In this document: positions 6,895 through 63,799 of the stretch, piece by piece
How the letters are laid out: every line of letters begins with the position of its first letter
Numbering within the stretch: position 1 is the first letter of the stretch
Origin: a virus
Length of the DNA: 64,000 bases
Virus record (IMG/VR): IMGVR_UViG_3300032222_000151
Location: 54,810-118,809 of that record
Direction: 5' to 3' (one strand)
Translations under genes and position numbers: made by a program
The notes under the pieces: generated by a model
The model's database searches: none
Seen by the model: only the letters and a program-made list of their open reading frames with translations
Told to the model about the DNA's origin: nothing

Positions 6895-7532
6895 TATACT
6901 TCTTCCAAGGTAACTGAGACATTCCAGTAATCAAACTTGGTGCCTCTCTTTTCAACAGAGTATGAAAACTCTGATATAAACATCTCTACTAGTTGATTGT
7001 ATTGTGAAAGGTGGTCGTACGGTGCTTCTGTGCCCTTAAAAATACCCTTCCTGTCATATGCAAGGAATACCCAGAAAGAACCTTTGTGACCGTCGTACCA
7101 TTCAAGCATGTCTGCTCCGCCTGCGCCTCCATCAGTTGTGTAGGCTTTGTATGGGGAAAGTCCAGTCTCCTGATTAAAACTAGGGATGTTTGCATGTGAC
7201 CTTGATGGAATCATATCCCAACTAGTACTGATCTTCATCTTGTCTGCAATATGATAAGATCTCATACGACCATTTATCATTCTCTCCCGCTTTTCAATAC
7301 GCTCATCTGAAAACTCAAGAGGAGATCTATTGTCGTCTGTAAGCATTAAGAATTGCTCTATTAGCGCTGGATCTGTTATATCTACAGGATCTGCGCCTAC
7401 CTCAAGACCGTAAGGTATATATAAACCATTAATCAGGGTGCCAGAGTTTTCAGACCAAAGCATTCCGCTTGGTCTATGATATTTCTTACGACTTTGCATG
7501 TATGTATACCTTGGATCAACTTCATCTGCCAT
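6894..7532 (-). CDS. Distal tail (Dit-like) minor tail protein
   Basis: 212 aa directly after tape measure; RERMINGRMRSY and WNVSVTLEEV ending typical of this position. Confidence 0.6.
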   Translation of the reverse strand: MADEVDPRYTYMQSRKKYHRPSGMLWSENSGTLINGLYIPYGLEVGADPVDITDPALIEQFLMLTDDNRSPLEFSDERIEKRERMINGRMRSYHIADKMKISTSWDMIPSRSHANIPSFNQETGLSPYKAYTTDGGAGGADMLEWYDGHKGSFWVFLAYDRKGIFKGTEAPYDHLSQYNQLVEMFISEFSYSVEKRGTKFDYWNVSVTLEEV

Positions 7533-10500: not shown

Positions 10501-13500
10501 GTCAAGAGCGTCTGAGTCTTTTTCAAATGCCTGAACCTTAGTAATGAAGTCTGTCTGTACTGTCTTGTTTATAACCTTGTCTGCTCCAAGAATATTTTGT
10601 GCTGCCACACCAATTGATTCAGATGTCGCACCACTAAACTTGGTAATTATGTTCATCATCTTTGGAGCAATATCTTTATTCTCTGTTGCCATTTGCAAAA
10701 GACTTCTAAATACTGACGGAGGTATATCTCCACTTGCCATCTTTGCTTGAATTAAAAATTCCTGTCCGCTATCAATTAGTCCAGACTTTCTCAGGTTTCC
10801 TGCCTGAGTATTAACAACATCTAGGTAGGCCAACTCATTAGGATTATTTTTGTATTTTGCACTAGTTGCCTTCTGCATTCCACTCATCATGGACTCTTGA
10901 AGACCTCCTGCGCTATTGTATTGAGAAACAATGTCTGCCTGTATAGCACCTTGTGCAGCAGTCAACTGATTTCTTTTATCAATTAACTTTTCTTGTAGTT
11001 CGTTTGCTTCATTAATTTTGCCCTGAAGTCTTAACTCTTCAACCTTCTTTTCCATATACATATCAAAAGAATCAAGCATTTGCTTGTTTTGCTCCATTGC
11101 AATCTTGGCATCAACGGCATATGCAGCACCTAGTTCTGCAGACTGATTTGCAAACTTCTTTGAAGCAAAGTATCCACCGATTGCTCCTGCTGCTGCACCA
11201 ATTCCTCCACCAATGATTGCTCCTACGGCATTTCCCAAAACTGGTACAACAGATCCTAGGGCTGCACCAATTGTTGCTCCGACTGCTGCGCCGCCTGCTG
11301 CTGATGCTCCAATACCAACCTTTTGCATAGTTTTTTGTCCAGCAAGTTTTTGTAGAGGGTTTGCATTTTCAATATTTGAAAAACTTGTCTGAAGGTTCTT
11401 TTTGTTTTGCTCAACCATCTTTACTCTAACTTCAAGAGGGCTGTTGACCAAGTTCTCTCCATTTGGACCTAGCAACTCTTCTATCTGTGCAATAACCTTG
11501 ATGCCCAAAGACATATCTCCTGCTTGTCTTGCAGCATTCATTGCTAAACTCTTTGCTTGACCAATATCCATTGCACCAGACATTACTGCTGTTGATAGTT
11601 GGTCTGTTAGATCTGATACCGCTTGACCACCCTTTCCTGCAGCATTTTGCTTTGAAAGTCTTTCTGTTAAAGCCTTTCCTTCTTTTGTCTGAACAAATGC
11701 TTCTCCGTATGTTGTCTTTCCTGTTGCTGGTCCTAGCATTGAGAAAGAGTTCTTTCTTCTTAAGTCCATTTGTTCTGAGGCTGTTGCTTTACCACTAAAC
11801 TTTGCTATTTCTTGAATTGCAGAAGCAGAACCCTTAAACTTTTCGCTTTCCTCTAAAACCTTCCTTTGTGCATTATCAAATGCCATTCTTAGGGCAACGA
11901 ATGCACCAACTGTTGCTGTCAGTCCAATTGCAACTGCTGCCATTGGGCTCTTTAGCATTGGCAAAACCATTGCAAGACCCATCAAAGGCATCATAACCTT
12001 TTGAGAAATTTCTCCAACCTTGCCTGGAGCCATTGATCCAATCATTGCAGCACCTGATGCGATACCAACTGCACCAGCCATGCCCATACCTGGGCTCTTT
12101 CCTGCTGCTATTTTTGCTTGTTTCTTTGCTTCTCTATTTTCAAAGTATGTTTTTGTTCTTCCAGAAAGAGTTCTCTTCTTTGCTTCTTCTGCTGCCTTTT
12201 GATCAATAATTGATTGTTTGTATGCTACCTTTTCTGCTAACTTACTTCTCTTCATTTCTTTTTGAGCATTGCGTCTCATAGACTTTGCATCTGCATCTAT
12301 TGGTCCCGTGCCGTAAAGCGCTGTTCTTGAGGCTGCTGCCTTTGCCTGTGTTTTTGCTTCAGCCTTTTGACGCTTCTCTAATTGACGACGTACAGACTTT
12401 GCATCTGCATCAACTGGACCAGTTCCATAGAGCATGGTTCTTGAGGCTGCTGCTGCAGACTGAGATATAGTTGTTCCAATATTTGCACCGACTGCTCTTG
12501 CTTCTGCAAGTGAACCCTTTGCGCCATTTACTAGTGCTGTTGCAACTGCACCTTGTGATTCTGGTGCATCAGCAAAACCAGCAACGGTTACTGATCCCTT
12601 TGGACCCTGTACGACCCTAGTGCCCTTCTTCGGCTTTGCAGTTATTCTAGTATCTTTTGAACTTCCAGAAGATGACTTAACGCCTTTAGGCTTTGGCTTT
12701 GTCTTTGGCTTCTTTAGGTTGCCCTTCTCATCTTCAATCATTTCATCTGGCTTTACCAAAATAGATGAATGCTTTGCATGGATGGCTCTCCAGTCAACCT
12801 TCTTTCCTTCTTCAAGTCGATCTATCATTGCCTGATAAACCTTTTGGTCTTCTGGTCCAAGACCGAAACTCTTTATAGTTTCTTTTAGTCTTGGTAGAAC
12901 TCTATCAATTTCATTAATCATTGATCTGTGGTATTCATCTGCTGTCATCTTCTTTGCAATGTCTGCAGTTGCATTACCAAACCAGAAAGGAGAGTTTCCT
13001 GCTGCTGGGCCCTTTACTCCACTTAAATTCTTTTCTGCCATTTCAAGCATTGAAGGTAACTTTGCTGCGTAATCTCTTGCTCCAGATGCTCTGTCAAATA
13101 CTCCAGCAGTTCCCACATCTGCAAGAATGTTTCCTCCAAGATTACCCTTCTTTAGATCTTTATCTGCACGAAGATTTGCTGCAACAAGTTGTCTAAAGTA
13201 TTGATCTTTATTAAACTTCTTATCCATTTGGTTTGGATCAAACTTTGAGTCAAATGCAGACTCAAGAGCATACATTAACTTTCCAGTGTAAGGATCTTTG
13301 ATGATTCTTAGTTCTTGCTTTGGTGCATCTAGACCGTGTACATCTCTTGCAATCTGTGTTGCTCTTTGTTCTGCAATTGCTGACTTCAAGTCAACCATTG
13401 GCTTTACATAAACCTTCTTACCATCTGCCGTTTCAAATACACCAGAGGCATCACGAGCAGCAACATTGCTGTATCCAGTTCCCTTTGAAATTTGCTTTCC

Positions 13501-16500
13501 ATAGGTTGTTACTGGCTTTCCATCTATGTCTTCTCCTGTAAGGCCCTGAAGAACTCCTCTTGCTGCTTTTAGTAGTGCAGGCTTTGATGTGTTTCCAATT
13601 TTAACTGCGCCTGTGTCTCCACCAGATCTTCCAGTAGCAAATCTATCTCCAACAAGGGATCCATTATTCTTTTTGTCTGTAAGAGTCCAGTCTTTTGGAT
13701 CTTTAGAATTTTTCTTTCCGCTAACTTCTGGTCTTTCGTATCCAATAAGTTTTCCATCTTTGTCAGTTAAAACATCAAGCATTATTCCTGGTGCTTTTAA
13801 CTTTAAATCTTCAATTGCAGAGATTGTTGCTCTATTGGTTTTAGGTCCGTCTTTCTTTATTTTTTCAATAAGATCTTCTACAGACATCTTGCCGTTATAC
13901 TTAACACTTGCCTTTGATCCACCGCCAACACCTGCTACTGCGTAGATGCTCTCAATTGCTGGAGCAAGTCTAGGGTCTCTTGCAAGTCCGCCAAGAATTC
14001 CTGTCTTAAGGTTACCCATTCTAGAGTAGATGGTTTTATCTCCAATTAAGGTTCCATCTGGCAAACCCTGTAGTGAAAGAATAAGGTTCTTGCGAATCCT
14101 GTTAGTAACCTTTGCTGCTTCTTCAGCAGTCAAACTGCTTGGTGGCTTCATTAAGTTTGCAGTCATTGTTTCTACTGCACGAGGCTTTCTTAGTTCTGCT
14201 TCGTATTCTCTTACTTCTACACGATTGTCTCTAAGTCTTGCATGTACATCACTTGCAATGTCAAACCCAAGACCACGGTATCCAAATGCTTTATCAATGC
14301 CTCTTGCACCAAGATCCTTAGCCTTTCCTTCAAACTCTGGCGGAACCTGTCCTACACCCATCACTTGTGGGCTTGTTGCATGTGCAAAATCTGTTTCTAC
14401 TTTTCTTCTTTTACCCTTTTTAGTTACTCCAGTTGTTCCTTCACTAAATCCTTGAATGGTTTCTCCTGCAACCATTCTGGCAATTACTGGTCTGTTTGCT
14501 GGATCCTGTGCAGCCTGTGCTGGGATTACTGCTTCTCCAGGAGTAAGCATTGTTGGAACTGTATCTTTATTACCTGTTCCTGGAACACTTGTTGTACCGT
14601 TTGAGTATTTCTTTAATCCCTTTCCACCTGCACCACCACGGACTGGGCCTGTAAATCCAACTTGTGCAGCAATTGCTCTTCTGTATGCTGCAGCCAAAGC
14701 ATTAACCGCTGTTGTCTCAGAGGTAAATGTTTGCTTAAGTCTTGTATGTACTTGATCTAGAGATGCTGCAACGGCAGATGCTTCTAACTGCTCTTTAGTT
14801 AAATAAGAAGTCTGCTCTCCTAATACCTTACTTGCTGATCCTGCTCGATTGTACATCGACTTCATGTTTGCAAATAGTTTGATTATGTTTGCAGCAGCGT
14901 TAGCAATTAAACCAAATGTCATCAGAAGAATCGGACCAATTCCTCCAACTGCAACAGTAAATATAGTTAAAAACTTTTTACTTCCATCGCCCAAGTTATT
15001 AAACTTTTCCAAAACCTTTGATGCAAACTCAACGATAGGTGTTAGGGCCTTTAGGAACTGCTCTCCAACTGGAGCAATAGTAACCTTTAAATCTTCGATT
15101 GCTTTCTTAAACTTGTATGTTGTTGTGTCTTCGATCTTATCTAATTCTCGTTGTGACAGGATTGCCAGTTCTTCTGTGGTTGCCTGTGCAAGTCCAAGGA
15201 CTCTGGAAGCCTGTGTTCCTTGTGCTGTAACGTTCTGGAACAATGTAGAAAGTCTTGAGAACTGGAACTTACCAAACAATTGTTCAATTGCACGAGCACG
15301 GTTTAGAGGATCAAGTGTATCTAGTGCCTGTGCGAACCCTACTACAGTCTTTGTTACATCTCCTTGATTTGCTTCTACAATACCCTTGATGTTTACGCCA
15401 AGACCTGCTAAAAACTTTGATGCCTTTTCGGATGGATTAATTAATGATGCAAGACCAGACTTAAGTGCGTTAGCACCTTCTGATGCATTAATTCCACCTT
15501 CCTTCATTGCTGTTAGGAAGAATGCTAAATCTTCTACATCTCCACCTAGTTGCTGAACAACTGGTCCAGCCTTTGGAATTGCAATCGTTAAGTCTTCAAT
15601 AGATACAACAGTTTGGTTTTCAACAGAGTTAAGGAAGTCAATCTTCTTTGCTAGATCTTCTGCTGCTATACCAAAAGCATTTGTAATTGAGATTGTGGTT
15701 TCTAGAGCCTGTGCTTGCTCAACTCCACCAAGAACAGCAAGTCTGGTTGCTTGTGCAACCTGTGCAGTTAGTTCTGCACCTTGCTTACCCATTGCTGCAG
15801 CATCTGCAGCCATCTTCATTGTCTCTTCTACTGCAACGCCGTACTTGGTATATTCTTTTGCAAGGGTTTGAATCTGCTTAACCATTGCATCTGTTTCTTC
15901 TTGCGTTGTAAACATTTCACCGTAAACACGCTTAAACCTAATTGCCTGCTCTTCAAGTTTCATAAATGTCTTGGCAGCAGTTGTTCCAAGCATTGCCAGT
16001 GGAACTGTAAAACCAACCATCAACTGACGACCAGCCCACTGAGTGTTCTTACCAAAGTTAAGTAGGTTTGTTGAGCCTTGCTTTAATAATTGATTAAGTA
16101 GTTGCTGTCTTTGTGCAGCAATTGCTGTTTGTGTTCCAAGATTTTTCATGTCAAGTGTAAGAGGTCTTACAGCAATTGACTCTAGGGCTCCGTTAGCGCC
16201 TCTGCCCAACTTAATGTATTGGGTCTGGATATCCTTAACACGCTCTCGTGCAACCTTGTTGATTGTTTCAAATTCAGATCTAAAAAGTCTTCCGAATGTC
16301 TTTGTTGCAGCACCTGTATATCTAAAGTACTCTCTAGAGGTTAACTTGTTTCTCTCTAGGGCATCTGTAAAGTGCTCTGTACTTGATGTAACTTTTCTAA
16401 GTGATGCTTGAAATTGTCCTGTAGCATTTATGCTGTTCATCAAGTTTTGTGCTTGATTTGCTGCTACCGCTGATGCTGACGCACCAGACTTTGCCATTTG

Positions 16501-16599
16501 TGTATGGAAGGCTGATATCTGACGTTGTAGAAGTTTTAGACTTGCTAAAGCATCGGACGTATCAATATTTACATGAATATTGGATTGAACATCAGCCAT
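7522..16599 (-). CDS. Tape measure protein with internal kinase-like insertion
   Basis: 3025 aa; TP901-type core (AGPVVQQLGGDVEDL..EGANALKSGL), coiled coils, hydrophobic segments, C-terminal DTVPAMLTPGEF motif; follows tail chaperones. Confidence 0.9.
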   Translation of the reverse strand: MADVQSNIHVNIDTSDALASLKLLQRQISAFHTQMAKSGASASAVAANQAQNLMNSINATGQFQASLRKVTSSTEHFTDALERNKLTSREYFRYTGAATKTFGRLFRSEFETINKVARERVKDIQTQYIKLGRGANGALESIAVRPLTLDMKNLGTQTAIAAQRQQLLNQLLKQGSTNLLNFGKNTQWAGRQLMVGFTVPLAMLGTTAAKTFMKLEEQAIRFKRVYGEMFTTQEETDAMVKQIQTLAKEYTKYGVAVEETMKMAADAAAMGKQGAELTAQVAQATRLAVLGGVEQAQALETTISITNAFGIAAEDLAKKIDFLNSVENQTVVSIEDLTIAIPKAGPVVQQLGGDVEDLAFFLTAMKEGGINASEGANALKSGLASLINPSEKASKFLAGLGVNIKGIVEANQGDVTKTVVGFAQALDTLDPLNRARAIEQLFGKFQFSRLSTLFQNVTAQGTQASRVLGLAQATTEELAILSQRELDKIEDTTTYKFKKAIEDLKVTIAPVGEQFLKALTPIVEFASKVLEKFNNLGDGSKKFLTIFTVAVGGIGPILLMTFGLIANAAANIIKLFANMKSMYNRAGSASKVLGEQTSYLTKEQLEASAVAASLDQVHTRLKQTFTSETTAVNALAAAYRRAIAAQVGFTGPVRGGAGGKGLKKYSNGTTSVPGTGNKDTVPTMLTPGEAVIPAQAAQDPANRPVIARMVAGETIQGFSEGTTGVTKKGKRRKVETDFAHATSPQVMGVGQVPPEFEGKAKDLGARGIDKAFGYRGLGFDIASDVHARLRDNRVEVREYEAELRKPRAVETMTANLMKPPSSLTAEEAAKVTNRIRKNLILSLQGLPDGTLIGDKTIYSRMGNLKTGILGGLARDPRLAPAIESIYAVAGVGGGSKASVKYNGKMSVEDLIEKIKKDGPKTNRATISAIEDLKLKAPGIMLDVLTDKDGKLIGYERPEVSGKKNSKDPKDWTLTDKKNNGSLVGDRFATGRSGGDTGAVKIGNTSKPALLKAARGVLQGLTGEDIDGKPVTTYGKQISKGTGYSNVAARDASGVFETADGKKVYVKPMVDLKSAIAEQRATQIARDVHGLDAPKQELRIIKDPYTGKLMYALESAFDSKFDPNQMDKKFNKDQYFRQLVAANLRADKDLKKGNLGGNILADVGTAGVFDRASGARDYAAKLPSMLEMAEKNLSGVKGPAAGNSPFWFGNATADIAKKMTADEYHRSMINEIDRVLPRLKETIKSFGLGPEDQKVYQAMIDRLEEGKKVDWRAIHAKHSSILVKPDEMIEDEKGNLKKPKTKPKPKGVKSSSGSSKDTRITAKPKKGTRVVQGPKGSVTVAGFADAPESQGAVATALVNGAKGSLAEARAVGANIGTTISQSAAAASRTMLYGTGPVDADAKSVRRQLEKRQKAEAKTQAKAAASRTALYGTGPIDADAKSMRRNAQKEMKRSKLAEKVAYKQSIIDQKAAEEAKKRTLSGRTKTYFENREAKKQAKIAAGKSPGMGMAGAVGIASGAAMIGSMAPGKVGEISQKVMMPLMGLAMVLPMLKSPMAAVAIGLTATVGAFVALRMAFDNAQRKVLEESEKFKGSASAIQEIAKFSGKATASEQMDLRRKNSFSMLGPATGKTTYGEAFVQTKEGKALTERLSKQNAAGKGGQAVSDLTDQLSTAVMSGAMDIGQAKSLAMNAARQAGDMSLGIKVIAQIEELLGPNGENLVNSPLEVRVKMVEQNKKNLQTSFSNIENANPLQKLAGQKTMQKVGIGASAAGGAAVGATIGAALGSVVPVLGNAVGAIIGGGIGAAAGAIGGYFASKKFANQSAELGAAYAVDAKIAMEQNKQMLDSFDMYMEKKVEELRLQGKINEANELQEKLIDKRNQLTAAQGAIQADIVSQYNSAGGLQESMMSGMQKATSAKYKNNPNELAYLDVVNTQAGNLRKSGLIDSGQEFLIQAKMASGDIPPSVFRSLLQMATENKDIAPKMMNIITKFSGATSESIGVAAQNILGADKVINKTVQTDFITKVQAFEKDSDALDFTKNIIKLNNLNSVIPSDFLVGFYIDPKNKAAYDELNRVLDAIETQKPKTIDAVYNIIPELRGSAAFDETYFKSLTDDQKQVYTTTIASVINIPDPQIVADDDYQAWLKETGPRGGAGVKGSVAFKIQKYKEAQGFKAVTNNTQITANAPTSSSSSSGGGNKVQSSELDDLVKRLRDVRKNQIKVTEGWGASQKALNNLFGGSKTIKIFSGIENDMRSLGAGEDLIDLITGMDPKEYEKRKKSLFEFDKKGNITKIKDNARSIGDALQSVKLGEFVSEQEKMSRQIGDQVTALKRLQAAGVDGSVALEAVADATFAAAVANKRLTDAELKKITAAAKKATKAQREMAAIQLATGETTDLENRAKILAKMTKDLSGLSSDTIAAILDSPALQAVMLEFGIDSERFKKLLQLTLDKANVELKIKKMTIPGMEEIFQDGFNKATEAFDVEEKKYQLKFDIDTKQANKDIEAAQNEIAKKQFDIDDKEAGLKQIEEQEKKINEKYDERIAALDQVEKANAAISEQQKGQLTLAEALTSGDIAAAARAAQDMRAKEAADAATKQKDALEKSREFELSGVKTKDGKTRKQLEAEIKKLQDEIFDIEEKKLEPAQELIRLREIQLKKEIDGITVLGKTRAEWEGIKNLVDLARIKSAQFVKAMQDALDIYPKLITAYENQKVNTDPINPTGTTTGTPTVTGTGTATGTDTGGDDDPKINPGSNGSTGTNPEFRGNAGSTPDGSTGGSKNNSGTTPAKNNNTSDPFYNSSLLHREDLDRMALDAKKNLMLFEQNMNVADVMKNAGTTPGLHLKSLYDQQNAAAIQNAMKPTPGMLAQEKAVRDAAARDAAAAKKAKENASADSARAAAAAKDAKRKQEEILKKFGGNAAAANAFGNWSTGGLIPKYFSFGGFAKGTDTVPAMLTPGEFIMSKYAVDSYGVDTMRKINKGDSIGGSVYNNTYTLTVNAKTNANPNEIAQAVMSTIKQVDDRRIRGVNINGR

Positions 16600-19010: not shown

Positions 19011-19684
19011 TATGCACCTACCCCTGCGTTAGCAATCCAGCGATAGCCAGTTGACACACCTTTTGTCTTGCCCATCTTTTTGCCTGCCTGCATATCTTTT
19101 CTATAAACCTGTGGATTTTCAAGATACTGTGCAACACCGCTTACTCTTAAGAACGCTTGTGAAAAATATCTGTTAAAGAACATATCGAAAACCTTTTCAA
19201 ATCCGCCTTGAACTTCTGTTCCTCCAGGATTATCTACTCTTACTTCATTTTTTGTAAACACCATTTCTCCATTTTCTTCAAATGCTAAAGCCTGTGCAAC
19301 TCTTGGTCTAATTACAACTGGAATACCTTCTTCCATAATTCTTGCTTTGTCATAAAAAGGAACTCTTGATCCATTCTTTATTGATGTGGACTGGCTAAAC
19401 GATGATCTAAAAGAGAGTCCTAAGTTACTTGTTGTATATGATATGTCATACAGTCTTGCGCTTGGGCTTCCAGTTTGATTCCATTCGTATATGTGGTGAA
19501 GCATATCTGGATTAACTCTTGCGTTTGAATCAATAAATTGCTTCATTACCTCAACAGTTTCCATGCCCAGAGTTTTTAAAAATATAGTCTTTCCTTTTTG
19601 AACACCTTCTAAAAAACCAACTGAATAATCAATTATGTTATTCATTTCTTTTTTAAACTGATTAGAATTAAATACAGTCCTCAT
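19010..19684 (-). CDS. Putative neck/tail completion protein
   Basis: 224 aa; synteny. Confidence 0.5.
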   Translation of the reverse strand: MRTVFNSNQFKKEMNNIIDYSVGFLEGVQKGKTIFLKTLGMETVEVMKQFIDSNARVNPDMLHHIYEWNQTGSPSARLYDISYTTSNLGLSFRSSFSQSTSIKNGSRVPFYDKARIMEEGIPVVIRPRVAQALAFEENGEMVFTKNEVRVDNPGGTEVQGGFEKVFDMFFNRYFSQAFLRVSGVAQYLENPQVYRKDMQAGKKMGKTKGVSTGYRWIANAGVGA

Positions 19685-20130
19685 ACGTCACCTGTCTGAT
19701 TCTCTGATCTTCTAATTACTACCTTATACGATTCAACCACTCCGAATGGGCCTACGAATGGCTCATATGTGGCTATTTCAAATAGTGTACCCTTTCCAGA
19801 TCGTGGGCCAGAGGTTTCTATGTATACAAGATTTCCTTCTTGATCTTTGATATCTGTTATCAATATATTTGTTAAAGAGTTTTTGTTATCACGAGAAGAT
19901 ATTCTTAGATCAGACTTTACTCTACCGATGAGAATTGAGTTCTGTGTTATATTTACATTTGGCTTTACTTCTTCTTTAAATGCTGATCCTCCTGATGAAA
20001 AACTACAGGCAAAAACCCTATCTAATATCCATTGCTTTTTAATTGCACCAAAATCACCTTGCTCAACTATTGGGTGATATACAGACGCTTGCATTGGAAA
20101 CATGAAGTCTGGGGTTTCGCAAACAGTCAT
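19681..20130 (-). CDS. Putative head-closure protein
   Basis: 149 aa; synteny after adaptor. Confidence 0.5.
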   Translation of the reverse strand: MTVCETPDFMFPMQASVYHPIVEQGDFGAIKKQWILDRVFACSFSSGGSAFKEEVKPNVNITQNSILIGRVKSDLRISSRDNKNSLTNILITDIKDQEGNLVYIETSGPRSGKGTLFEIATYEPFVGPFGVVESYKVVIRRSENQTGDV

Positions 20131-21557: not shown

Positions 21558-22691
21558 TTACTCATCTGCTGCAGCGTCAGCGAATGCAATTGCATCCTCT
21601 TCTTCCCACTGAATACCAAAGCGGACGAATACTGTGTACTCAATTGTGTCCTTCTTTGCTACGTATTCACGGTTTACTGTGATATCGCGCTGGAATCCCC
21701 ATACACGGTTTGCAGGGAATGTCAAATCGATATAGCCTGCTGGGTAGTAAGGAACTTCCTGAACTTCAATTCCGAGAACACGAGTTGTACGTGCTCCACC
21801 GAATGTCTGTCCGATACCATCAAGGTATGACTGGCGATTTGCCTGGGTTGATCCTGGCATCTGGCCTGCGAATGCTTCTGCAACTGCATCAGCAAGTGTA
21901 CCGTTGTTCTTAACGATTCCACCGAATGCGTCTGTACCTGCGTAGAACTTAAGATTGTTCTTAAGTGCACGGTACTTACGTGGCATTGCATTGATGATGC
22001 CCTGCATTACATCAGGTGTCCAAGCATTATCTGCTACGGTCACTACTGACTCATGTGCATCTCCGTTTGTCTTTACCTTGTTGATAAAGCCTGGCATGAT
22101 TGACAAGAATGCTCCTGTTGAACCATCACCATTGATAGCGAGATCTTCGATATCATTTGCGAATGCGTTTGTCATCAAGCGTACCAAGTGATCTTCTAGA
22201 GCGTCACCTTCTACACCATCTTCCAATGATTCTGCTGTTACTTCCCAATCAAGACGAATCTTCTTGGTAGTAAGTTCGACCTTAGAGAATGTTGCACCTG
22301 TGTTTGTGTATGTACCAACTGCTTGCGCTGCTGCACGGATTACACGCTCACCGACGTTTACCTTCTCAAGTTCCATAGAATTAGCCTTCATTGTTACACG
22401 ACGGCCATCCTTTGCTAATACTGTTGCATCCCAAACATAGTCGATAAAACGACGTGCCTGCTCAGGGCGCAAAATTCCAGAAGCCGCTGAACCACTAGGG
22501 TTAACAGCGTTTGCTCCGCTTGTAGATCCAAGAGTTGCTGTTGGAATGTTACCAAGTGTATCTGCACCTGGGTTTGTTACTCCACCAATTCCACCTGATG
22601 CGAAAGCACCTTGGCCCTGGTAAAGTCCTGGTGCTGTTCCACCTAGATCTCCAGATGCGCCTGGCTGGTTTTTGATTATTTCTTCTGACAT
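21558..22691 (-). CDS. Major capsid protein (HK97 fold)
   Basis: GILRPEQARRFIDYV, ESLEDGVEG, FANDIEDLAINGD motifs; SD AGGAGGT before MSEE; follows protease. Confidence 0.9.
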   Translation of the reverse strand: MSEEIIKNQPGASGDLGGTAPGLYQGQGAFASGGIGGVTNPGADTLGNIPTATLGSTSGANAVNPSGSAASGILRPEQARRFIDYVWDATVLAKDGRRVTMKANSMELEKVNVGERVIRAAAQAVGTYTNTGATFSKVELTTKKIRLDWEVTAESLEDGVEGDALEDHLVRLMTNAFANDIEDLAINGDGSTGAFLSIMPGFINKVKTNGDAHESVVTVADNAWTPDVMQGIINAMPRKYRALKNNLKFYAGTDAFGGIVKNNGTLADAVAEAFAGQMPGSTQANRQSYLDGIGQTFGGARTTRVLGIEVQEVPYYPAGYIDLTFPANRVWGFQRDITVNREYVAKKDTIEYTVFVRFGIQWEEEDAIAFADAAADE

Positions 22692-57218: not shown

Positions 57219-57557
57219 AGTCTATCAGAGGGGACTGACAAATTAGCCTGTTTCTCGGGTGTGTCGGGAAAGTATTTTTGTGATTTACACCACACCAATT
57301 AGGCTACTATTTAATTGTTATAGGAGTATCCTATCACATACCCTGCCAAAAGTCAAGCACCAACACGGCGTGTCGCATGTGATTTGCATCACAAAAAAAT
57401 CGCACGTGCCGTTTTTGTCAAATCGACACACCGACAATCATGGTCATTTTTTAAGTATGACCATTTAAGTGTGACCTACCTCTCATGTGACCTACCTCAC
57501 AATGTCCGTTTTGGTAGTATTTGTACCCTCCAATTTGTCACACCCCCCTGCTACACT
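57219..57557. promoter_or_regulatory. Divergent early control region
   Basis: Minus promoters (TGTCA-N11-TAGACT; TTGACT-N17-TAGGAT), plus promoter TGTCA-N11-TACACT, four CRP-type boxes, CACGTG, GACAC motifs. Confidence 0.75.
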
Positions 57558-58975: not shown

Positions 58976-59185
58976 ATGACAATTTCAATTGAACACTCAC
59001 TAAAATTCGTAACAGAGTTTGACGAAAATCATCCAATCGCTAAGCAGGCCCTTGCACTACCTCAATCAGATTTAATTGCAATGCTTGAAGGAATGCTAAA
59101 GGACCTACTCGTTCCCGCACTACTTCCAGAAATTAACAAGATAAACGAAAACGGCTCTTATGCAATTCTTAAGGTGGTTGCATAA
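58976..59185 (+). CDS. Hypothetical protein
   Basis: 69 aa; SD AGGA. Confidence 0.65.
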   Translation: MTISIEHSLKFVTEFDENHPIAKQALALPQSDLIAMLEGMLKDLLVPALLPEINKINENGSYAILKVVA

Positions 59186-59367
59186 TGATGACTCGTAAAG
59201 ACTACATCGAAACTGCAAAAATTCTAAATCAATTCGCAAATGAAATTGATTCAAAAACTTTTCAAGATTTAATTTTTGAATTTAGCGAATGGTTTACTGC
59301 TGACAATCCAAGATTTGACGAAAATAAATTTTGGGATGCTTGCGTTAAAGAGCCTGCACTAGTATAA
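59185..59367 (+). CDS. Hypothetical phage protein (MTRKDY..DNPRFD..F..AC family)
   Basis: 60 aa, coupled to upstream gene. Confidence 0.7.
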   Translation: MMTRKDYIETAKILNQFANEIDSKTFQDLIFEFSEWFTADNPRFDENKFWDACVKEPALV

Positions 59368-59370
59368 AAA

Positions 59371-59399
59371 AGATCCTGAGCATGATCTAAAACTGCTCA
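59371..59399 (+). ncRNA. Putative H-type pseudoknot element, copy 1
   Basis: AGATC-CTGAGCAT-GATCT-AAAAC-TGCTCA. Confidence 0.65.
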
Positions 59400-59407
59400 A
59401 AATTTTT

Positions 59408-59628
59408 CACGTGCCGTTTTCCACAGGTCAGACCAAGTTATCCACAGGTCATTTAAGATGTGAGATTAAACACACCCTCTGAGCGTCTCACTATTTAAGA
59501 TTACTCGAAAGTAACTTGAGATTTTTTGTCTAATAGGCTAGACTTACATAGTAAGAAAAAATAAATAAAAGAAAGTCTATTCTCTTACGGCGTGTCTAAC
59601 CGAAAATGTCAGACCCCCATGATAGGAT
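59408..59628 (+). promoter_or_regulatory. Intergenic cassette with DnaA boxes, CRP-type box and promoter
   Basis: CACGTG; TTTTCCACA 59417; TTATCCACA 59438; TGTGA-N6-ACACA 59459; ACGGCGTGTC 59587; TGTCA-N11-TAGGAT. Confidence 0.7.
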
Positions 59629-59659
59629 AGAATTATCAACAAAACGAAAGAGGTTGCTC

Positions 59660-59869
59660 ATGTCAGCAAATGTCTATACAATAGAAAACCTACTTGTAGG
59701 AAAAACTTATAAGTCCCGCACACTAACGGGAGAAATTATCTCAGCCGAAAAGTCTGATGTATGGTATACAGGTTGCGAGTCTTATCGTGTTCAGGTACGC
59801 CCACACTACTCAGCCCCACTTAACCTAAAAGATACATACCGCATACTTGCAGTAAGAATTGGAGACTAA
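59660..59869 (+). CDS. Hypothetical small beta-barrel protein
   Basis: Start MSANVY with SD GAGGT. Confidence 0.65.
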   Translation: MSANVYTIENLLVGKTYKSRTLTGEIISAEKSDVWYTGCESYRVQVRPHYSAPLNLKDTYRILAVRIGD

Positions 59870-59872
59870 TAA

Positions 59873-60049
59873 ATGAATACTTGGGATTGCATGGATTGCT
59901 ATGATGAGGGTGTCCTATTTTGGGGCAACAATAATGGCGAATACGATACAGATTTTTGTGAGTGCAACAAGGGCGTTACACTTTACAACGAATACACCGC
60001 ATGGTATGCTAGTAATGAATTAAACGAATACACATTGGAGAACGCATAA
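59873..60049 (+). CDS. Zinc-ribbon mini-protein (58 aa)
   Basis: MNTWDCMDCYDEG..FCEC; SD GGAG. Confidence 0.6.
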   Translation: MNTWDCMDCYDEGVLFWGNNNGEYDTDFCECNKGVTLYNEYTAWYASNELNEYTLENA

Positions 60050-60270
60050 TGGAAAAAGAATACCTATACTCAGTTACTATTGCCTATGACTCAGACCTTA
60101 AGCCTCGTTGGACAGGGCGTTACTCAGATGCTTTAACTGCCGTTGAAGTTTATCAGCGCTTTGTAGATGTAGGCTTTGCTAACGAGTATGTAACAGTTAA
60201 TCTGTCTGAACCTTCAGGCAAGATGCACACAAAAATTATTGACCGCATGGGAAAGGTAACAACACGATAA
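60049..60270 (+). CDS. Hypothetical protein
   Basis: 73 aa, coupled. Confidence 0.65.
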   Translation: MEKEYLYSVTIAYDSDLKPRWTGRYSDALTAVEVYQRFVDVGFANEYVTVNLSEPSGKMHTKIIDRMGKVTTR

Positions 60271-60593
60271 TGGGAAACAATTTTGCACAAGACTTAGCAG
60301 AAAACATTGACATAAGCCTTGAACAGGCTATCGGTTATCACTTACAGGGTAATCACTATCCACCAGTACCACTAAGCATGGTAGCCCCTTGCATTGAAGC
60401 GTTAGATGCTGCACGAGAAATGGACGCTATGCGTCAAATTGAAATGCCTGAAGGCGTATTCTATAAGGGAAAGACTACTGCACCAGCATGGGCTATCATT
60501 GAGCAACACCACTTAGATGCATGGTTGCCACAAGATGAAAATGAATACTATGGTGAAGATGCAGGCTATGAACTAGGGTTAGGATTAGAATAA
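60270..60593 (+). CDS. Hypothetical phage protein
   Basis: HLQGNHYPPVP and IIEQHHLDAWL motifs. Confidence 0.7.
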   Translation: MGNNFAQDLAENIDISLEQAIGYHLQGNHYPPVPLSMVAPCIEALDAAREMDAMRQIEMPEGVFYKGKTTAPAWAIIEQHHLDAWLPQDENEYYGEDAGYELGLGLE

Positions 60594-60835
60594 TGTCTGA
60601 TACAATGGTAAACATGGAATTGTTACACGCTGATAACTTAACACCAGATCAGATCATGCTTGGTGATTTAATTAAAATTGCTGATGACATTGTTGAAGTT
60701 ATTTTTATTGAAAGTGATTCAACAGGTGATAACTATGACATACAAACGCAAAATGAGTTTGGTGAAAAAGAAGTTACACAGTATGCATACACTGATTTAA
60801 TTCCGTTATATGTTTTTATTGATGAAGATGAATAG
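60593..60835 (+). CDS. Hypothetical acidic protein
   Basis: 80 aa, coupled. Confidence 0.65.
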   Translation: MSDTMVNMELLHADNLTPDQIMLGDLIKIADDIVEVIFIESDSTGDNYDIQTQNEFGEKEVTQYAYTDLIPLYVFIDEDE

Positions 60836-60844
60836 TTAAAAGTA

Positions 60845-60870
60845 TTTTTGTGTGCTTCCCCGCACAAAAA
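60845..60870. terminator. Hairpin flanked by T and A runs
   Basis: TTTTTGTGTGC-TTCCCC-GCACAAAAA. Confidence 0.5.
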
Positions 60871-60945
60871 TGCACGTGGCCCATATGTGAGATTTATCAC
60901 ATTTAAGAAATTGACATTTTTACCCCTGTATGATAAGATTAATTT

Positions 60946-61098
60946 ATGAAGAAAAATGCAGAGGAATTACGCAGGCTTATGGAATTGCGCCGTAGCAATG
61001 CAGCCTCTGCCGTACCCAATAAGAAAAAGTATGACAGAAAAAAATGTCAGTCCTTAATGCTAGAATTGAAGAAAGAAAGAGGGCCCCACTATGACTAA
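60946..61098 (+). CDS. Small basic protein (50 aa), leaderless
   Basis: MKKNAEELRRLMELRRSNAASAVPNKKKYDRKK..; TTGACA-N17-TAAGAT 6 nt upstream. Confidence 0.65.
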   Translation: MKKNAEELRRLMELRRSNAASAVPNKKKYDRKKCQSLMLELKKERGPHYD

Positions 61099-61813
61099 AC
61101 TCCTACGCTCAAAAGATAGAAAGGTTGCTAACCTTGTCACACCTAATGGAAAACAAGCAAGTATCGCTAACACATTCGGACTACCTGCAGGAAAGAACTA
61201 TTCATGTCCTGGCGCAACGAGTGTCTGCGAGAGTGTTTGCTATGCAGGCAAATTGGAAAAAGTATTCCCAACAGTAAAGAAAAACCTATTGCACAATTGG
61301 GCATTGCTTAAAGACGCAGACGGCGAAACCATGGTTCGCTTACTTAATGAAATGATCACAGAATTTAAGGCTGATTGCGTAAAGCGTGAGGCACCTATGC
61401 TATTCCGCATTCATTGGGACGGTGACTTCTTTAATGATACCTACGCATACGCATGGAAAGTGGTTATTGATAAGCACCCTGACATTCAATTCTGGGTATA
61501 CACTCGTGTGAAGAGTGCTGCACTTATTCTTAAGGATGTATCTAATCTATCATTGTATTTTTCTGCAGACAGTGAGAATGTTAAAACTGCCGTTGATCTA
61601 AAAATTAACAGTGGCGTACGCATGGCATACCTTGCTAAGAATTTTGCTATTGGTCAAGCCGATGTAAAAGAAATGATCGGACGACCTGCTGCTAAGTGTC
61701 CTGAGAATAATAAACAGATTCCACTTATCTCTCAACAAGGATCCGCTTGCGTTTCGTGCTCACTTTGTGTATACTCTAAGAGTGACATAATTTTTTCTGC
61801 AACTAAGAAATGA
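61091..61813 (+). CDS. Gp88-like phage protein (Cys-cluster, radical-SAM-like fold)
   Basis: FGLPAG..CPGATSVCESVCYA, FRIHWDGDF, FWVYTR, C-terminal CxxCxxC. Confidence 0.75.
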   Translation: MTKLLRSKDRKVANLVTPNGKQASIANTFGLPAGKNYSCPGATSVCESVCYAGKLEKVFPTVKKNLLHNWALLKDADGETMVRLLNEMITEFKADCVKREAPMLFRIHWDGDFFNDTYAYAWKVVIDKHPDIQFWVYTRVKSAALILKDVSNLSLYFSADSENVKTAVDLKINSGVRMAYLAKNFAIGQADVKEMIGRPAAKCPENNKQIPLISQQGSACVSCSLCVYSKSDIIFSATKK

Positions 61814-61819
61814 GATGAG

Positions 61820-61882
61820 ATGAACACAATGCAAGTTATATTTTTATTTTGGTTATTGTTCTTTTTATTTTTATTGCAATGA
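61820..61882 (+). CDS. Possible hydrophobic peptide (20 aa)
   Basis: MNTMQVIFLFWLLFFLFLLQ; weak start context. Confidence 0.3.
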   Translation: MNTMQVIFLFWLLFFLFLLQ

Positions 61883-62050
61883 TTTGAAAAGGGGCCACGT
61901 CCGCAAAATCTGGTTTGTCAAGTTGCGACACGCCTTTAAGATGTGATTAAGGTCACACCCCAAAACCCCCGCTGAATTGGTATTTCTGACATTTTTCTGC
62001 TAAAATTATACTATAAGCAATTAACCCCCACAACGAAAGGCAAGACCCAA

Positions 62051-62221
62051 ATGTCAATTAACGGATACACATACCAAATCGGTGATTTATTCACAACAAG
62101 CAAAACAGGCGTTACAGGTCGTATCGCAGGTTTCTCACCAATCAATAATAAGGTTACTAGAGTTAGCCTAGTCCTAGCAAACGGCTCTCGTCGCTTGGCT
62201 ATGGTCAAGACATCTAAGTAA
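62051..62221 (+). CDS. Small SH3/KOW-like protein (56 aa)
   Basis: MSINGYTYQIGDLFTTSKTGVTGRI..; SD GAAAGG. Confidence 0.7.
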   Translation: MSINGYTYQIGDLFTTSKTGVTGRIAGFSPINNKVTRVSLVLANGSRRLAMVKTSK

Positions 62222-62327
62222 TCTCACATTGTGAGAAATGTCAGGTTTCGATTTGACATTTTTATCCCCAAAATGTTATACTTAGGTATAACCAAATAAC
62301 AACCCCTAAACAGAAAAGAGAAAACAA

Positions 62328-62492
62328 ATGGCAGTAGCAACAGCAACTTACAAGGTAGGCGACACTTTCACAACTCAGAAGTCAAAGGTCACAGGAGTAA
62401 TCACAGAGATTAACCCACAGGCTAATGGTAATGTTCGTGTAAAGTTAGATGTCAATGGACAGGCTCGCTATACAACTTGGACGGCTAAGTAA
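62328..62492 (+). CDS. Small SH3/KOW-like protein (54 aa), paralog of 62051-62221
   Basis: MAVATATYKVGDTFTTQKSKVTGVI..; promoter TTGACA-N18-TATACT. Confidence 0.7.
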   Translation: MAVATATYKVGDTFTTQKSKVTGVITEINPQANGNVRVKLDVNGQARYTTWTAK

Positions 62493-62503
62493 TACAATTA
62501 GTA

Positions 62504-62531
62504 ATTCCTGAGCATGAATACAAACTGCTCA
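62504..62531 (+). ncRNA. Putative H-type pseudoknot element, copy 2
   Basis: ATTC-CTGAGCAT-GAAT-ACAAAC-TGCTCA. Confidence 0.65.
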
Positions 62532-62565
62532 AACAAACCCCCTAACAGTAAAGGAACAGACCCAC

Positions 62566-62988
62566 ATGGCAAGAGGAAAAGCAATCTCAGTAAAAATCGC
62601 AACACCAAAGGTAATCAAGGCACTTGAGACAAAGTTAGCAGAAGTTAATGCTAACTATGCTAATCAAGAAGCAAACGAAGCAAAGTATAAGAAGCAATAC
62701 GAAAAGTATCAGAAGGAACTTACTGCTTATGCCGTTGCTAACATCAAGAAAGCAGAGAACTTTCGTACCAACTTCCGCTCATGGAATAATCAGTTAAACA
62801 TTGACTTTGACCTAACAGTTTCAGAGGCAGACCTACCAAAAGAGCCAACTAAGGACTTTGAGGTTATGTCACAATGGAACTACAAGGAAATCGTAGATGA
62901 GATTGAGAACGCAATTCGTATTCTCAAGATGACAGATGAGGAAGTAGTTAATACTTCCACATACAATGCGGTTGCTCGTTATCTCTAA
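62566..62988 (+). CDS. Hypothetical coiled-coil protein
   Basis: 140 aa; SD AAGGA. Confidence 0.75.
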   Translation: MARGKAISVKIATPKVIKALETKLAEVNANYANQEANEAKYKKQYEKYQKELTAYAVANIKKAENFRTNFRSWNNQLNIDFDLTVSEADLPKEPTKDFEVMSQWNYKEIVDEIENAIRILKMTDEEVVNTSTYNAVARYL

Positions 62989-63038
62989 TTAAATCAACAC
63001 GACCACAGAAATGCGTGTATAAATAAATAAAGTGGAAA

Positions 63039-63066
63039 CCACCTGAGTATGTGGCTAAACTGCTCA
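63039..63066 (+). ncRNA. Putative H-type pseudoknot element, copy 3
   Basis: CCAC-CTGAGTAT-GTGG-CTAAAC-TGCTCA. Confidence 0.65.
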
Positions 63067-63185
63067 CCCCTCTCCCCTTGTGTTTCACGCTATGGTTAGC
63101 AAGGATCCCCTAGAGGAGTGGGACTAAATTTGTCAGCGGTACCCAGTACAATTGAATTAATCAACCAAACAGAAAGAGGGCCCCC

Positions 63186-63605
63186 ATGGACCAGGTAACA
63201 AAAGTAGACAATCACTACATGACACGAGAGTTTTTAGAAACTCAATTAGTAGAAAACAAGAAGCGCATCCAGCAACTTGAAGAACACATTCAAACAGTAA
63301 CACAACGTTCATATGGAGAAGCCGCAGAGCGCAACCGTATGCGTAATGAAATGCAAGAGTGGACCTTGGAAGCAATGGAGCACGGTACCATTGATGAAAG
63401 CACTGCAGAAGAAATTGCAAACATTTGCGGTTTTGAATTATCAAAAGAATTTGAACTAGAGGTAACCGTTCAATATTCAATTACAGTTAATGCTCGTGAT
63501 GAGGAATCTGCACAGAATGCAATTCATGACATTGATTTTGATTCAGTCTCATATGGTGAAGAAGTAACTTACTTGTCATCCAGTGTTGACAGAATAGAAA
63601 TTTAG
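63186..63605 (+). CDS. Hypothetical acidic protein
   Basis: 139 aa; promoter TGTCA-N11-TACAAT upstream. Confidence 0.75.
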   Translation: MDQVTKVDNHYMTREFLETQLVENKKRIQQLEEHIQTVTQRSYGEAAERNRMRNEMQEWTLEAMEHGTIDESTAEEIANICGFELSKEFELEVTVQYSITVNARDEESAQNAIHDIDFDSVSYGEEVTYLSSSVDRIEI

Positions 63606-63622
63606 TAGGGGGCTACTAATAC

Positions 63623-63650
63623 GGACCTGAGCATGTCTTTTAAACTGCTC
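63623..63650 (+). ncRNA. Putative H-type pseudoknot element, copy 4
   Basis: GGAC-CTGAGCAT-GTCT-TTTAAAC-TGCTC. Confidence 0.65.
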
Positions 63651-63670
63651 CTCTGTTTCCTCAAAAAATG

Positions 63671-63799
63671 CACGTGGGGCCTGTGGATAACTTTGTGGAT
63701 AACTTTAAGATTGTGTGAATTTAATCACATTACGGAATGTCCGATTTATCCCATCTTTAACTATCCCGATTTGCATTTGTCAGACCCTCCCTGTATACT
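63671..63799 (+). promoter_or_regulatory. Intergenic cassette with DnaA boxes, CRP box and promoter
   Basis: CACGTG; TGTGGATAA at 63682 and 63694; TGTGA-ATTTAA-TCACA 63714; TGTCA-N11-TATACT. Confidence 0.75.

Follow-up and report, generated by a model that had tools for sequence, protein, structure and literature searches.

Among the described RNAs, small pseudoknots of the coremin type are the closest known fold to the element analyzed here. In the sections of PMC10321173, PMC10520033 and PMC5760640 on which we draw, coremin is described to stall Xrn1 and scanning ribosomes, its resistance to Xrn1 strictly requiring a second hairpin, hp2 (PMC10321173). A Watson-Crick variant of coremin, in which S2 is the pairing GAG-CUC, an L1 nucleotide is essential and the L2 adenines are predicted to lie in the minor groove of S1, stalls Xrn1 as well and stimulates frameshifting even without hp2 (PMC10321173). 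A flaviviral exonuclease-resistant RNA (xrRNA) also halts the bacterial RNase J1 (PMC5760640), and octaloops that follow no single rule have been reported in coremin (PMC10520033). We analyzed a 64,000-nucleotide (nt) stretch (the window throughout), which comprises bases 54810–118809 of the 118,809-bp virus record IMGVR_UViG_3300032222_000151 carrying a 123-bp terminal repeat. Four repeats in this window are genuine copies of a small, very widespread RNA pseudoknot. Its design varies a known kind, the small H-type, coremin-like knot, and its hosts are a new realm for this kind. Judged from sequence and context, the motif may serve as a compact 3′ cap or punctuation mark for mRNA, a reading to which we assign a probability of roughly 0.4.

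All four copies lie on the + strand, are 27–28 nt long and share the layout P1 5′ strand-CTGAG(C/T)AT-P1 3′ strand-N1–3-AAAC-TGCTC, in which P1 is the first helix and P2 the pairing of its loop with the terminal TGCTC. Copy 1 (59371–59398) reads AGATC-CTGAGCAT-GATCT-AAAAC-TGCTC, with P1 formed by 59371–59375 and 59384–59388, P2 by 59378–59382 (GAGCA) and 59394–59398 (UGCUC), and AAAAC as L3; AAAATTTTT follows directly 3′. Copy 2 (62504–62530; ATTC-CTGAGCAT-GAAT-ACAAAC-TGCTC) pairs 62504–62507 with 62516–62519 in P1 and 62510–62514 with 62526–62530 in P2, and a start codon at 62566 stands 35 nt 3′ of it. Copy 3 (63039–63065; CCAC-CTGAGTAT-GTGG-CTAAAC-TGCTC) has its P1 between 63039–63042 and 63051–63054 and its P2, via GAGUA with a U-G wobble, between 63045–63049 and 63061–63065. 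P1 of copy 4 (63623–63650; GGAC-CTGAGCAT-GTCT-TTTAAAC-TGCTC) connects 63623–63626 with 63635–63638 and has an outer G-U pair, P2 connects 63629–63633 with 63646–63650, and L3 (UUUAAAC) is one nucleotide longer. An earlier sequence-only reading of this DNA had placed four copies at these positions of the + strand, as is borne out by reading the sequence and by a pattern match. It had further described both deviations from Watson-Crick pairing as G-U wobbles on the + strand, and these are indeed the U-G in P2 of copy 3 and the G-U in the outer P1 pair of copy 4.

The pattern CTGAGYAT-N3–12-AAACTGCTC matches four times in the window and not once in each of 100 dinucleotide-preserving shuffles. 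Its halves alone are unremarkable, with 11 matches to CTGAGYAT (5.3 expected) and 26 to AAACTGCTC with one mismatch (21.3 expected). A covariance model, R1, was built from the sequences of 100 relatives with P1 as the sole structure, P2 being left out of the search model. With its filters off, R1 scores copies 1–4 at 47.4, 41.9, 46.9 and 32.4 bits, and the next match in the window reaches 11 bits. Covariance-model search of the whole genome yields seven copies (21.7–47.4 bits; next match 10.2 bits); the earlier count of four was thus right for the window and had not seen three more copies elsewhere in the same genome. Two of these lie on the + strand at genome positions 974–1006 and 19653–19685, where a tRNA-Asp gene (at 1009) and a tRNA-Arg gene (at 19688), respectively, begin 5 nt later. 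The upstream stops stand 9 and 8 nt before their closing C, and the latter copy has a fully covaried P2 (GGGUA/UACCC). The third, at 22466–22500 on the − strand (35 bits), possesses a 10-nt loop and is followed by TCATTTTTTG, which provides six U. It ends a stretch of about 110 nt that lacks an open reading frame (ORF) and lies behind a TTGAAA-17-TATAAT promoter-like site, so that this unit looks like a small non-coding RNA gene whose end is the pseudoknot plus the U-tract.

Both helices covary in a larger alignment. In two alignments with 88 and 90 distinct sequences, P1 is paired in 96.8% and 97.2% and P2 in 99.8% and 99.3% of cases, compared with 22–44% in slid control alignments; these figures are to be read with the seed sequences having been selected for pairing and most matches having come from a scan that fixed the P2 letters. 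Compensatory changes on both sides of the helix occur at 8 of 10 pairs in each alignment, comprising all four P1 pairs and four of the five P2 pairs. In percentage paired, in the counts of compensated pairs and compensated cells and in covariation score, the observed values are reached by none of 500 shuffles, while a fifth measure, further pair types, is reached by 1 and 93 of the 500. Departures from the consensus at P2 positions 1–3 always carry the matching change, as for G to A at position 1 (9 of 9 sequences). At the C/U position of P2, the two alignments hold C-G 63 and 68 times and U-G 24 and 18 times, and since this wobble thus occurs 42 times and the opposite-strand A·C never, the structure is one of RNA on the sense strand. 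The proposal of an H-type pseudoknot in the sense-strand RNA is thereby substantiated. Further P2 variants retrieved by a relaxed regular expression are GGACA/UGUCC, AGACA/UGUCU, GAACA/UGUUC, GGGCA/UGCCC and AAAUA/UAUUU.

Two kinds of variant were seen besides. One instance (L045:3082–3144, − strand) has about 30 inserted nt, themselves able to form a hairpin, where the 5′ strand of P2 meets the 3′ strand of P1; the P2/P1 junction can therefore take an extra domain. A recurrent form (L009:11346–11378, L049:4520–4552, L043:1974–2006, L098:6206–6238) ends in AAAAGGCUC rather than AAACUGCUC, has a 4-bp P2 and scores 18–24 bits; it may be a subtype or consist of decayed copies.

The anatomy of the motif was derived from 184 distinct instances of canonical length. 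P1 comprises 4–5 bp with an invariant closing C-G pair, next to which stands an A-U or U-A pair in 84 of 87 and 81 of 90 sequences. L1 is a C followed by a U (U in 99%), P2 pairs GAG(C/U)A with UGCUC, the junction nucleotide is a U in 88%, and L3 consists of N2 and an invariant AAAC. Directly 3′ of P2, an A is found in 75% of the instances, which might add a sixth U-A pair (paired in 74–76%). The majority consensus reads a-GUC-CU-GAGCA-U-GAC-g-UU-AAAC-UGCUC.

When compared with coremin (xrRNA-C/xrRNA-WCC) as given in the cited sections, this consensus is identical in the stem of hp1, in the C that opens the loop and in the spacer GUUAAACU (PMC10520033). A GUC/GAC stem is present in 51 of the 184 distinct phage instances, and 13 of the 184 are identical at all 15 shared positions. 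[quoted passage not shown] Common to both are the short hairpin with its C-G closing pair and adjoining W pair, a loop starting with C, the spacer ...UUAAAC-U, the pairing between loop and spacer that makes a small H-type pseudoknot, and a location in 3′ untranslated regions (UTRs) and intergenic regions. The phage motif differs in its 8-nt loop (CUGAGCAU), whose second letter is U in 99%, which breaks the YGAD/YGNNAD rule, and in a P2 of 5–6 Watson-Crick pairs instead of a non-canonical or 3-bp contact. It also lacks hp2, with 35 of 273 instances showing a hairpin that begins no more than 3 nt from P2 versus 44 of 273 at a control offset, and its carriers are double-stranded DNA (dsDNA) phages and prokaryotic mobile elements, which are without Xrn1. 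Because hp2 is absent and the loop rule is broken, the motif is not a member of coremin by the published criteria as far as these sections state them; by sequence it appears to be at least built like a coremin-type knot.

No match at gathering score was obtained for the whole window with Rfam 15, and cmscan of 59300–63700 with E values up to 10 gave three unrelated weak matches, none of them on a copy. This agrees with the sequence-only reading, which had recognized no family and had named an Rfam match as a possible refutation. Literature searches with motif strings and terms retrieved no description of the element, no paper containing as many as two of the four strings, and the main-text portions considered of the candidate-RNA surveys PMC10690425 and PMC8040213 and of two 2026 preprints do not mention it, while their supplementary catalogues contain thousands of unnamed IMG/VR candidates that may include the motif. 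We thus regard it as an RNA family that is absent from Rfam 15 and so far uncatalogued, and that may sit unnamed in such supplements.

Small structured RNAs conserved to the letter across phyla are rare, and the known ones are mostly riboswitches, ribozymes and nuclease blocks. The loop letters C, U and AAAC of the motif are invariant and the closing C-G pair and P2 nearly so across phyla, which exceeds the needs of a passive structure and brings up a specific binding site, i.e. an aptamer through which a conserved protein or small molecule would regulate the genes on either side. A topology resembling small pseudoknot aptamers and a fold that is only marginally stable alone, as expected if it were stabilized by a ligand, would suit such a role. 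We nevertheless consider it unlikely, as the flanks retrieved share no protein family across more than 22 of the 239 loci, the neighbours belong to 28 Pfam families upstream and 45 downstream with unrelated functions, a genome can hold up to seven copies, P2 does not overlap a ribosome-binding site and no Rfam riboswitch model matches. The likeness to the preQ1-I riboswitch suggested earlier is confined to topology, namely a small H-type pseudoknot with an A-rich 3′ tail along P1. In contrast to preQ1-I, the motif has a one-nucleotide L2, keeps the 3′ strand of P2 clear of the ribosome-binding site, and lies in many copies 3′ of genes with unrelated neighbours (DUF932, Hsp20, DUF3768, scaffold genes) rather than in the 5′ leader of a queuosine gene; moreover, the Rfam preQ1 models gave no match at E values up to 10. 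The proposal of a type III antitoxin-like decoy is not supported, since the window copies are dispersed, with 3132, 535 and 584 nt between successive copies and each behind a different ORF, and not in tandem. Antitoxin RNAs of type III, which are tandem repeats placed right before the gene of an endoribonuclease toxin, are system-specific and thus unlike a near-invariant cross-phylum motif. A Pfam search for ToxN found no match in the genome, a result of little weight as control genomes gave none either.

The motif is spread far beyond this phage. An exact-pattern scan of IMG/VR found it in at least 120 contigs, and 128 of the 138 listed instances have at least three uninterrupted P1 pairs next to the loop, the P1 sequences differing widely. 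With a stricter pattern, it was found in at least 119 contigs from at least 100 species genomes of GTDB belonging to many phyla. Of 125 listed GTDB instances, 79 have at least three pairs beyond the fixed C-G, 30 have two and 16 have none or one, the last being largely chance matches in coding sequence, e.g. in Pseudomonas. The listed carriers include many Candidatus Saccharibacteria and other Patescibacteria, besides Anaerolineae, Lachnospiraceae, Selenomonadaceae, Clostridium, Bacteroidia, Saprospira, Ktedonospora, Nocardia and Methanobrevibacter. Among cultured phages, a 33-nt consensus-like query hit 140 records, with a cover of 80% or more in 21, and R1 confirmed all nine loci checked (32–49 bits). 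These carriers infect Staphylococcus, Streptococcus, Lactobacillus, Mycobacterium, Arthrobacter and cyanobacteria. In Staphylococcus phages, the order is minor head gene, motif, scaffold gene and major head gene, with a spacer common to 51 records, and in Lactobacillus phage phiEF-1.1, Streptococcus phage Javan271 and the thermophilic phage D6E the motif likewise stands directly before scaffold and capsid genes. Arthrobacter phage Molivia carries it between the SSB gene and a tRNA gene, and single further carriers are Mycobacterium phage Labelle, Synechococcus phage S-EIVl and the crAss-like phage cr7_1. A plasmid collection gave 11 weak matches in all, two of which cover at least 80% of the query.

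In Candidatus Saccharibacteria, the motif was seen at two loci with conserved flanks (L126, L150, L157, L168, L177, L228, L202 and L127, L154, L167, L232, L236). At one of them it precedes a gene whose product, by eye and on the translation alone (L150), is pentapeptide-repeat-like; at the other it is flanked by DUF7249 and DUF3768 genes, with a large ATPase alongside, a setting that looks like a mobile or defence island.

With respect to genes, the motif lies between them and on their strand. Over 133 viral instances, the median distance back to the closest stop codon of a same-strand ORF is 21 nt, and the closest opposite-strand ORF is 264 nt away. Orientation was counted with a greedy gene call over all loci. 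The upstream gene is on the same strand in 195 of 211 intergenic instances and on the opposite strand in 16; both genes share the strand of the motif in 164, only the downstream gene is opposite in 31, only the upstream gene in 12 and both in 4. Called ORFs contain a further 58 instances, for the most part chance matches or ORFs that are short or extended too far, and 25 lie at locus edges. Intergenic regions of 150–800 nt show the motif close to the upstream stop alone in 27 viral-contig cases and close to the downstream start alone in 4; the corresponding counts for genomes are 20 and 6. These observations indicate an element of the upstream mRNA's 3′ end, a same-strand gene upstream being the constant feature.

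The distance from the stop codon to the closing C shows a sharp floor with a pile-up of 36 instances at 8 nt, 16 at 9 nt and 14 at 10 nt; only 3 instances lie at 7 nt and 2 below. With this floor, P1 starts about 5 nt past the stop, which is about where the mRNA channel ends when the stop codon occupies the ribosomal A site. On the other side, the next start codon observes a lower bound of about 15–20 nt after the motif, and starts pile up from about 20 nt. The 5′ floor together with the 3′ bound is what a module forced to stay folded between ribosomes would show. Stop codons before the motif are TAA in 102, TAG in 53 and TGA in 15 instances, the ORF background being too crude for inference. 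In the window, the copies had been described as lying just 3′ of the stops at 59367, 62492, 62988 and 63605, and all four prove to be true ORF ends, 3, 11, 50 and 17 nt before P1 of copies 1–4, respectively.

The frameshift pseudoknots of luteoviruses (beet western yellows virus, BWYV; potato leafroll virus, PLRV), as portrayed in the sections used of PMC10321173, resemble the motif in size, H-type topology, short L1, one-nucleotide junction and an A-rich loop over S1. Unlike them, the motif follows a stop codon and not a slippery site. Luteovirus pseudoknots keep at least 5 nt from the A-site codon, similar to the stop spacing of the motif. Programmed recoding was rejected, as the frames past the stop close soon, after a median of 9.5, 4 and 13 codons (112 instances), and the frame of the next ORF is uniform (18/12/13).

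A U-tract (at least 5 T in 8) begins 0–2 nt after P2 in 28.3% of 276 instances compared with 5.1–8.3% at control offsets, and a stricter one (at least 6 T in 8) in 15.6% compared with 0.7–3.6%, an overall enrichment of 4- to 10-fold; A-tracts are not enriched in the same instances. Positions +1 to +10 contain 2–11% G against a background of 22%, and the stretch from +1 to +26 is less structured than control stretches, with a mean minimum free energy (MFE) of −1.71 versus −2.15 to −2.38. The pseudoknot itself could in principle be the RNA structure of an intrinsic terminator or attenuator, considering this U-tract enrichment, the ORF-less unit at genome positions 22466–22500 that ends in the motif and six U, and stacked P1 and P2 helices which at 10–11 bp would have about the length of a terminator stem. 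No intrinsic terminator-like site was found on the + strand at the four window copies. Intrinsic terminators are marked by a stable G+C-rich structure with a U-tract of 7–9 nt immediately 3′. Yet 72% of the instances have no U-tract. Moreover, the next gene start follows within 45 nt in 62 of 165 cases and a tRNA gene within 14 nt in 15, leaving no room for a promoter, and in Staphylococcus phages the motif resides inside the morphogenesis block before genes needed in large amounts. Termination by the knot itself therefore seems improbable to us.

A same-strand tRNA gene begins 3–14 nt after the motif in 15 instances, seven separate contexts by our count, which include two of the seven copies of this genome. 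Ten of the 15 represent one conserved DUF932-motif-tRNA-Asp arrangement; the others involve tRNA-Gly, tRNA-Ser, tRNA-Gln, tRNA-Arg and the Molivia locus. Only a single motif has a tRNA ending in the 20 nt before it, a 15-to-1 asymmetry, and in Nostoc phage NMeng1 an annotated pseudo-tRNA begins 2 nt after the match. tRNA punctuation is a processing signal in organelle transcripts, and the tRNA-like ends of plant viruses contain pseudoknotted acceptor arms whose topology matches the motif. Hence, the motif might be a minimal acceptor-arm mimic or self-cleaving element that is cut by RNase P, RNase Z or itself and acts as a processing signal. Its spacing of 3–8 nt from the tRNA is like that of tRNA arrays (this genome has tRNA genes 3 and 17 nt apart), the terminal P2 pair is G-C and mostly followed by the A mentioned above, which resembles G1-C72 and the A73 discriminator of tRNA, and the wide cross-phylum spread would fit a universal enzyme. 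We judge this very unlikely nonetheless, because there is no T-loop-like element, ACCA follows P2 in just 7 of 289 instances, no Rfam ribozyme or tRNA-like family matches and ARAGORN called no tRNA at the copies. Self-cleavage is further disfavoured since no helix encloses the motif (flank duplex energy −6.46 versus −6.07 in mismatched controls), which argues against a larger ribozyme fold.

Repetitive extragenic palindromic (REP) elements and terminator-type 3′ hairpins stabilize upstream bacterial mRNA, and RNase III sites separate the early genes of T7. The motif resembles these as a repeated structured element of 3′ UTRs and intercistronic regions, with several copies in the early region and a presumed role in setting and protecting mRNA ends. 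The known elements are long hairpins, characterized mainly by structure and restricted to a single host lineage, whereas the motif has 27–28 nt, near-invariant loop letters and a cross-phylum distribution.

From the observed structure, strand, placement and adjoining features of the motif, we infer that the 3′ cap would operate by 3′ end formation at the motif and a nuclease block by its fold. The constant upstream gene, the floor at the ribosome edge, the U-tracts and tRNA 5′ ends on the 3′ side, the tRNA asymmetry and the G-poor unstructured tail together speak for an upstream-end module folded between ribosomes. In the proposed mechanism, the cis-acting H-type pseudoknot would fold just past the region covered by a ribosome positioned at the stop codon. 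A transcript 3′ end would then arise a few nucleotides downstream, by release at the U-tract, by an RNase P cut at the 5′ end of the adjoining tRNA or by an endonuclease cut in the G-poor unstructured linker. The pseudoknot would be left as a terminal cap keeping 3′-to-5′ exonucleases out of the coding region, and polycistronic phage transcripts would thus be punctuated into units of different stability. Upstream genes for abundant proteins such as Hsp20, SSB (as in Molivia), HU and the major head subunit support a 3′ cap, as does the lack of + strand intrinsic terminator-like sites at the window copies. Among the three functions offered by the sequence-only reading, the nuclease-blocking or processing element fits best, given the stop-hugging placement, U-tracts, tRNAs and coremin likeness, in preference to the preQ1-I-like aptamer and the antitoxin.

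Contigs from RNA libraries cover the early region in four runs. The 167-nt bin of copy 3 has the highest depth in all four. Past copy 1, depth per bin drops to 0.4 and 13 (before it, 124 and 273), and past copy 3 to 30, 35, 0 and 0 (before it, 414, 926, 64 and 8). These depths are a weak hint only, since depth is flat per contig and the contigs show no ends; a relative's version of the motif sits on a loose contig end at 62992.

Several observations weigh against a 3′ cap. The U-tract is missing from the majority of instances, as stated above, and is only weakly tied to operon ends, being present in 13 of 62 instances with a close next gene and in 36 of 103 lacking one (p = 0.078). Some RNA-library contigs run past copy 3, one covering 63032–63174, and a contig joined at 63036 reaches at least 61 nt past that joint. 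The predicted nested MFE of the window copies is −3.9 to −4.7 kcal/mol, the MFE structure being P2, a stability far below that of usual 3′ stabilizers. The near-invariant loop and P2 letters would not be needed by a passive cap and argue for a specific recognition factor, and the position just before scaffold and capsid genes in Staphylococcus, Streptococcus and Lactobacillus phages and D6E suits protection of the downstream message equally. Finally, coremin, as described in the cited sections, blocks a 5′-to-3′ and not a 3′-to-5′ enzyme.

An alternative is a coremin-like roadblock on the 5′ side, which would stall a 5′-to-3′ exonuclease, e.g. RNase J, or ribosomes that move on after termination and thereby shield or insulate the downstream cistron. 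As far as the cited sections go, the shared hp1 stem, first loop C and spacer (PMC10520033), the activity of the Watson-Crick variant on Xrn1 and on frameshifting without hp2 (PMC10321173) and the arrest of RNase J1 by a flaviviral xrRNA (PMC5760640) are in its favour, as is the position of the motif immediately 5′ of scaffold and major capsid genes in Firmicutes phages. On the other hand, hp2, which is strictly required for Xrn1 resistance in these accounts, is not present, the 26 nt after P2 being less structured than controls, and the second loop letter is U and not the G of YGAD/YGNNAD. Where intergenic regions are long, it is the upstream stop rather than the downstream start that the motif lies close to, and tRNA genes follow the motif in 15 cases and precede it in one. 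RNase J scores above the cut-off in 29 of 50 carrier and 8 of 14 control genomes and is thus not enriched, many carriers being incomplete metagenome-assembled genomes. We therefore hold a 5′ roadblock to be doubtful, and less probable than the 3′ cap.

In a broader reading, which we likewise treat as doubtful, the motif would be a protein-independent 27–28-nt knot of coremin design in dsDNA phages and prokaryotic mobile elements that mechanically blocks RNA-threading enzymes, i.e. exonucleases, ribosomes and perhaps helicases. If such a mechanical knot acted at the edge of the terminating ribosome, polycistronic messages would be cut into units with their own lifetimes, and prokaryotes would have their first known exonuclease-resistant RNA class in the motif. 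Either deep convergence or a fold shared between eukaryotic RNA viruses and phages would be implied as well; the coremin likeness raises the question whether the same minimal fold arose twice. A cap or block would explain mRNA boundaries and expression ratios in phages without canonical intergenic terminators, tie tRNA genes to mRNA end formation and offer synthetic biology a 28-nt, host-independent insulator or stabilizer. The motif is abundant, and since it is carried by cultured, genetically tractable phages, e.g. of Mycobacterium smegmatis and Arthrobacter, its function is directly testable.

The ORFs adjoining the window copies, all on the + strand, are small. Copy 1 is preceded by the stop of a 60-aa ORF (59185–59367), 7 nt before the invariant closing C, and copy 2 by that of a 54-aa ORF (62328–62492), whose family adjoins the motif in 8 loci. 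Between copies 2 and 3 lies a 140-aa ORF (62566–62988) of the commonest neighbour family (22 members in 17 loci), and the stop of a 139-aa ORF (63186–63605) precedes copy 4. Across the collection, 150 of 164 distinct upstream genes were scanned and include DUF932 (17), Hsp20 (7), DUF3768 (6) and DUF7249 (6), with SSB, HU, RadC and the Mu-type major head subunit among the singletons. The 124 downstream genes scanned include Zn-ribbon (8), SNase (6), DnaB (3), ArdC-N (3) and many others. WhiB-like genes occur in 18 viral loci, which suggests actinobacterial hosts for part of the set.

By appearance, the phage looks like a siphovirus. An ORF of 3025 aa (window 7522–16599, − strand) matches tape measure protein families over its first approximately 1000 residues and implies an unusually long tail. 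The portal is 46–47% identical to those of the Streptomyces phages Coruscant, Starbow and Mandalore (Stanwilliamsviridae), the closest cultured relatives by this protein, which do not carry the motif, as R1 reaches at most 12 bits in them. Neither megablast of the region nor tblastn of the 140-aa neighbour ORF gave a match among cultured phages. DNA of the phage occurs in freshwater, lake, river and estuary metagenomes of several studies.

Two further repeats were noted in the same region. A CACGTG-centred box (AAATGCACGTGG(C/G)) is present in the window at 60868–60880, 63666–63678, 57398–57410 and about 59409–59418 and at about genome position 1090 after tRNA-Asp, in non-coding stretches just before early-gene promoter-like sites; a degenerate pattern for it gives 3 matches versus 0.04 expected. 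A regulator of the phage or host probably uses it as an operator. TTTAAGAT beside a TGTGA-N-TCACA-type inverted repeat looks like an operator, too, and recurs, as seen by eye, upstream of four early transcription units (window about 59453–59478, 60885–60910, 61936–61961 and 63703–63731). Lastly, two paralogous small genes stand in tandem at window 62051–62221 (56 aa) and 62328–62492 (54 aa), each with its own TTGACA/TATACT-type promoter-like site; the palindrome TCTCACATTGTGAGA directly follows the first, and pseudoknot copy 2 the second.

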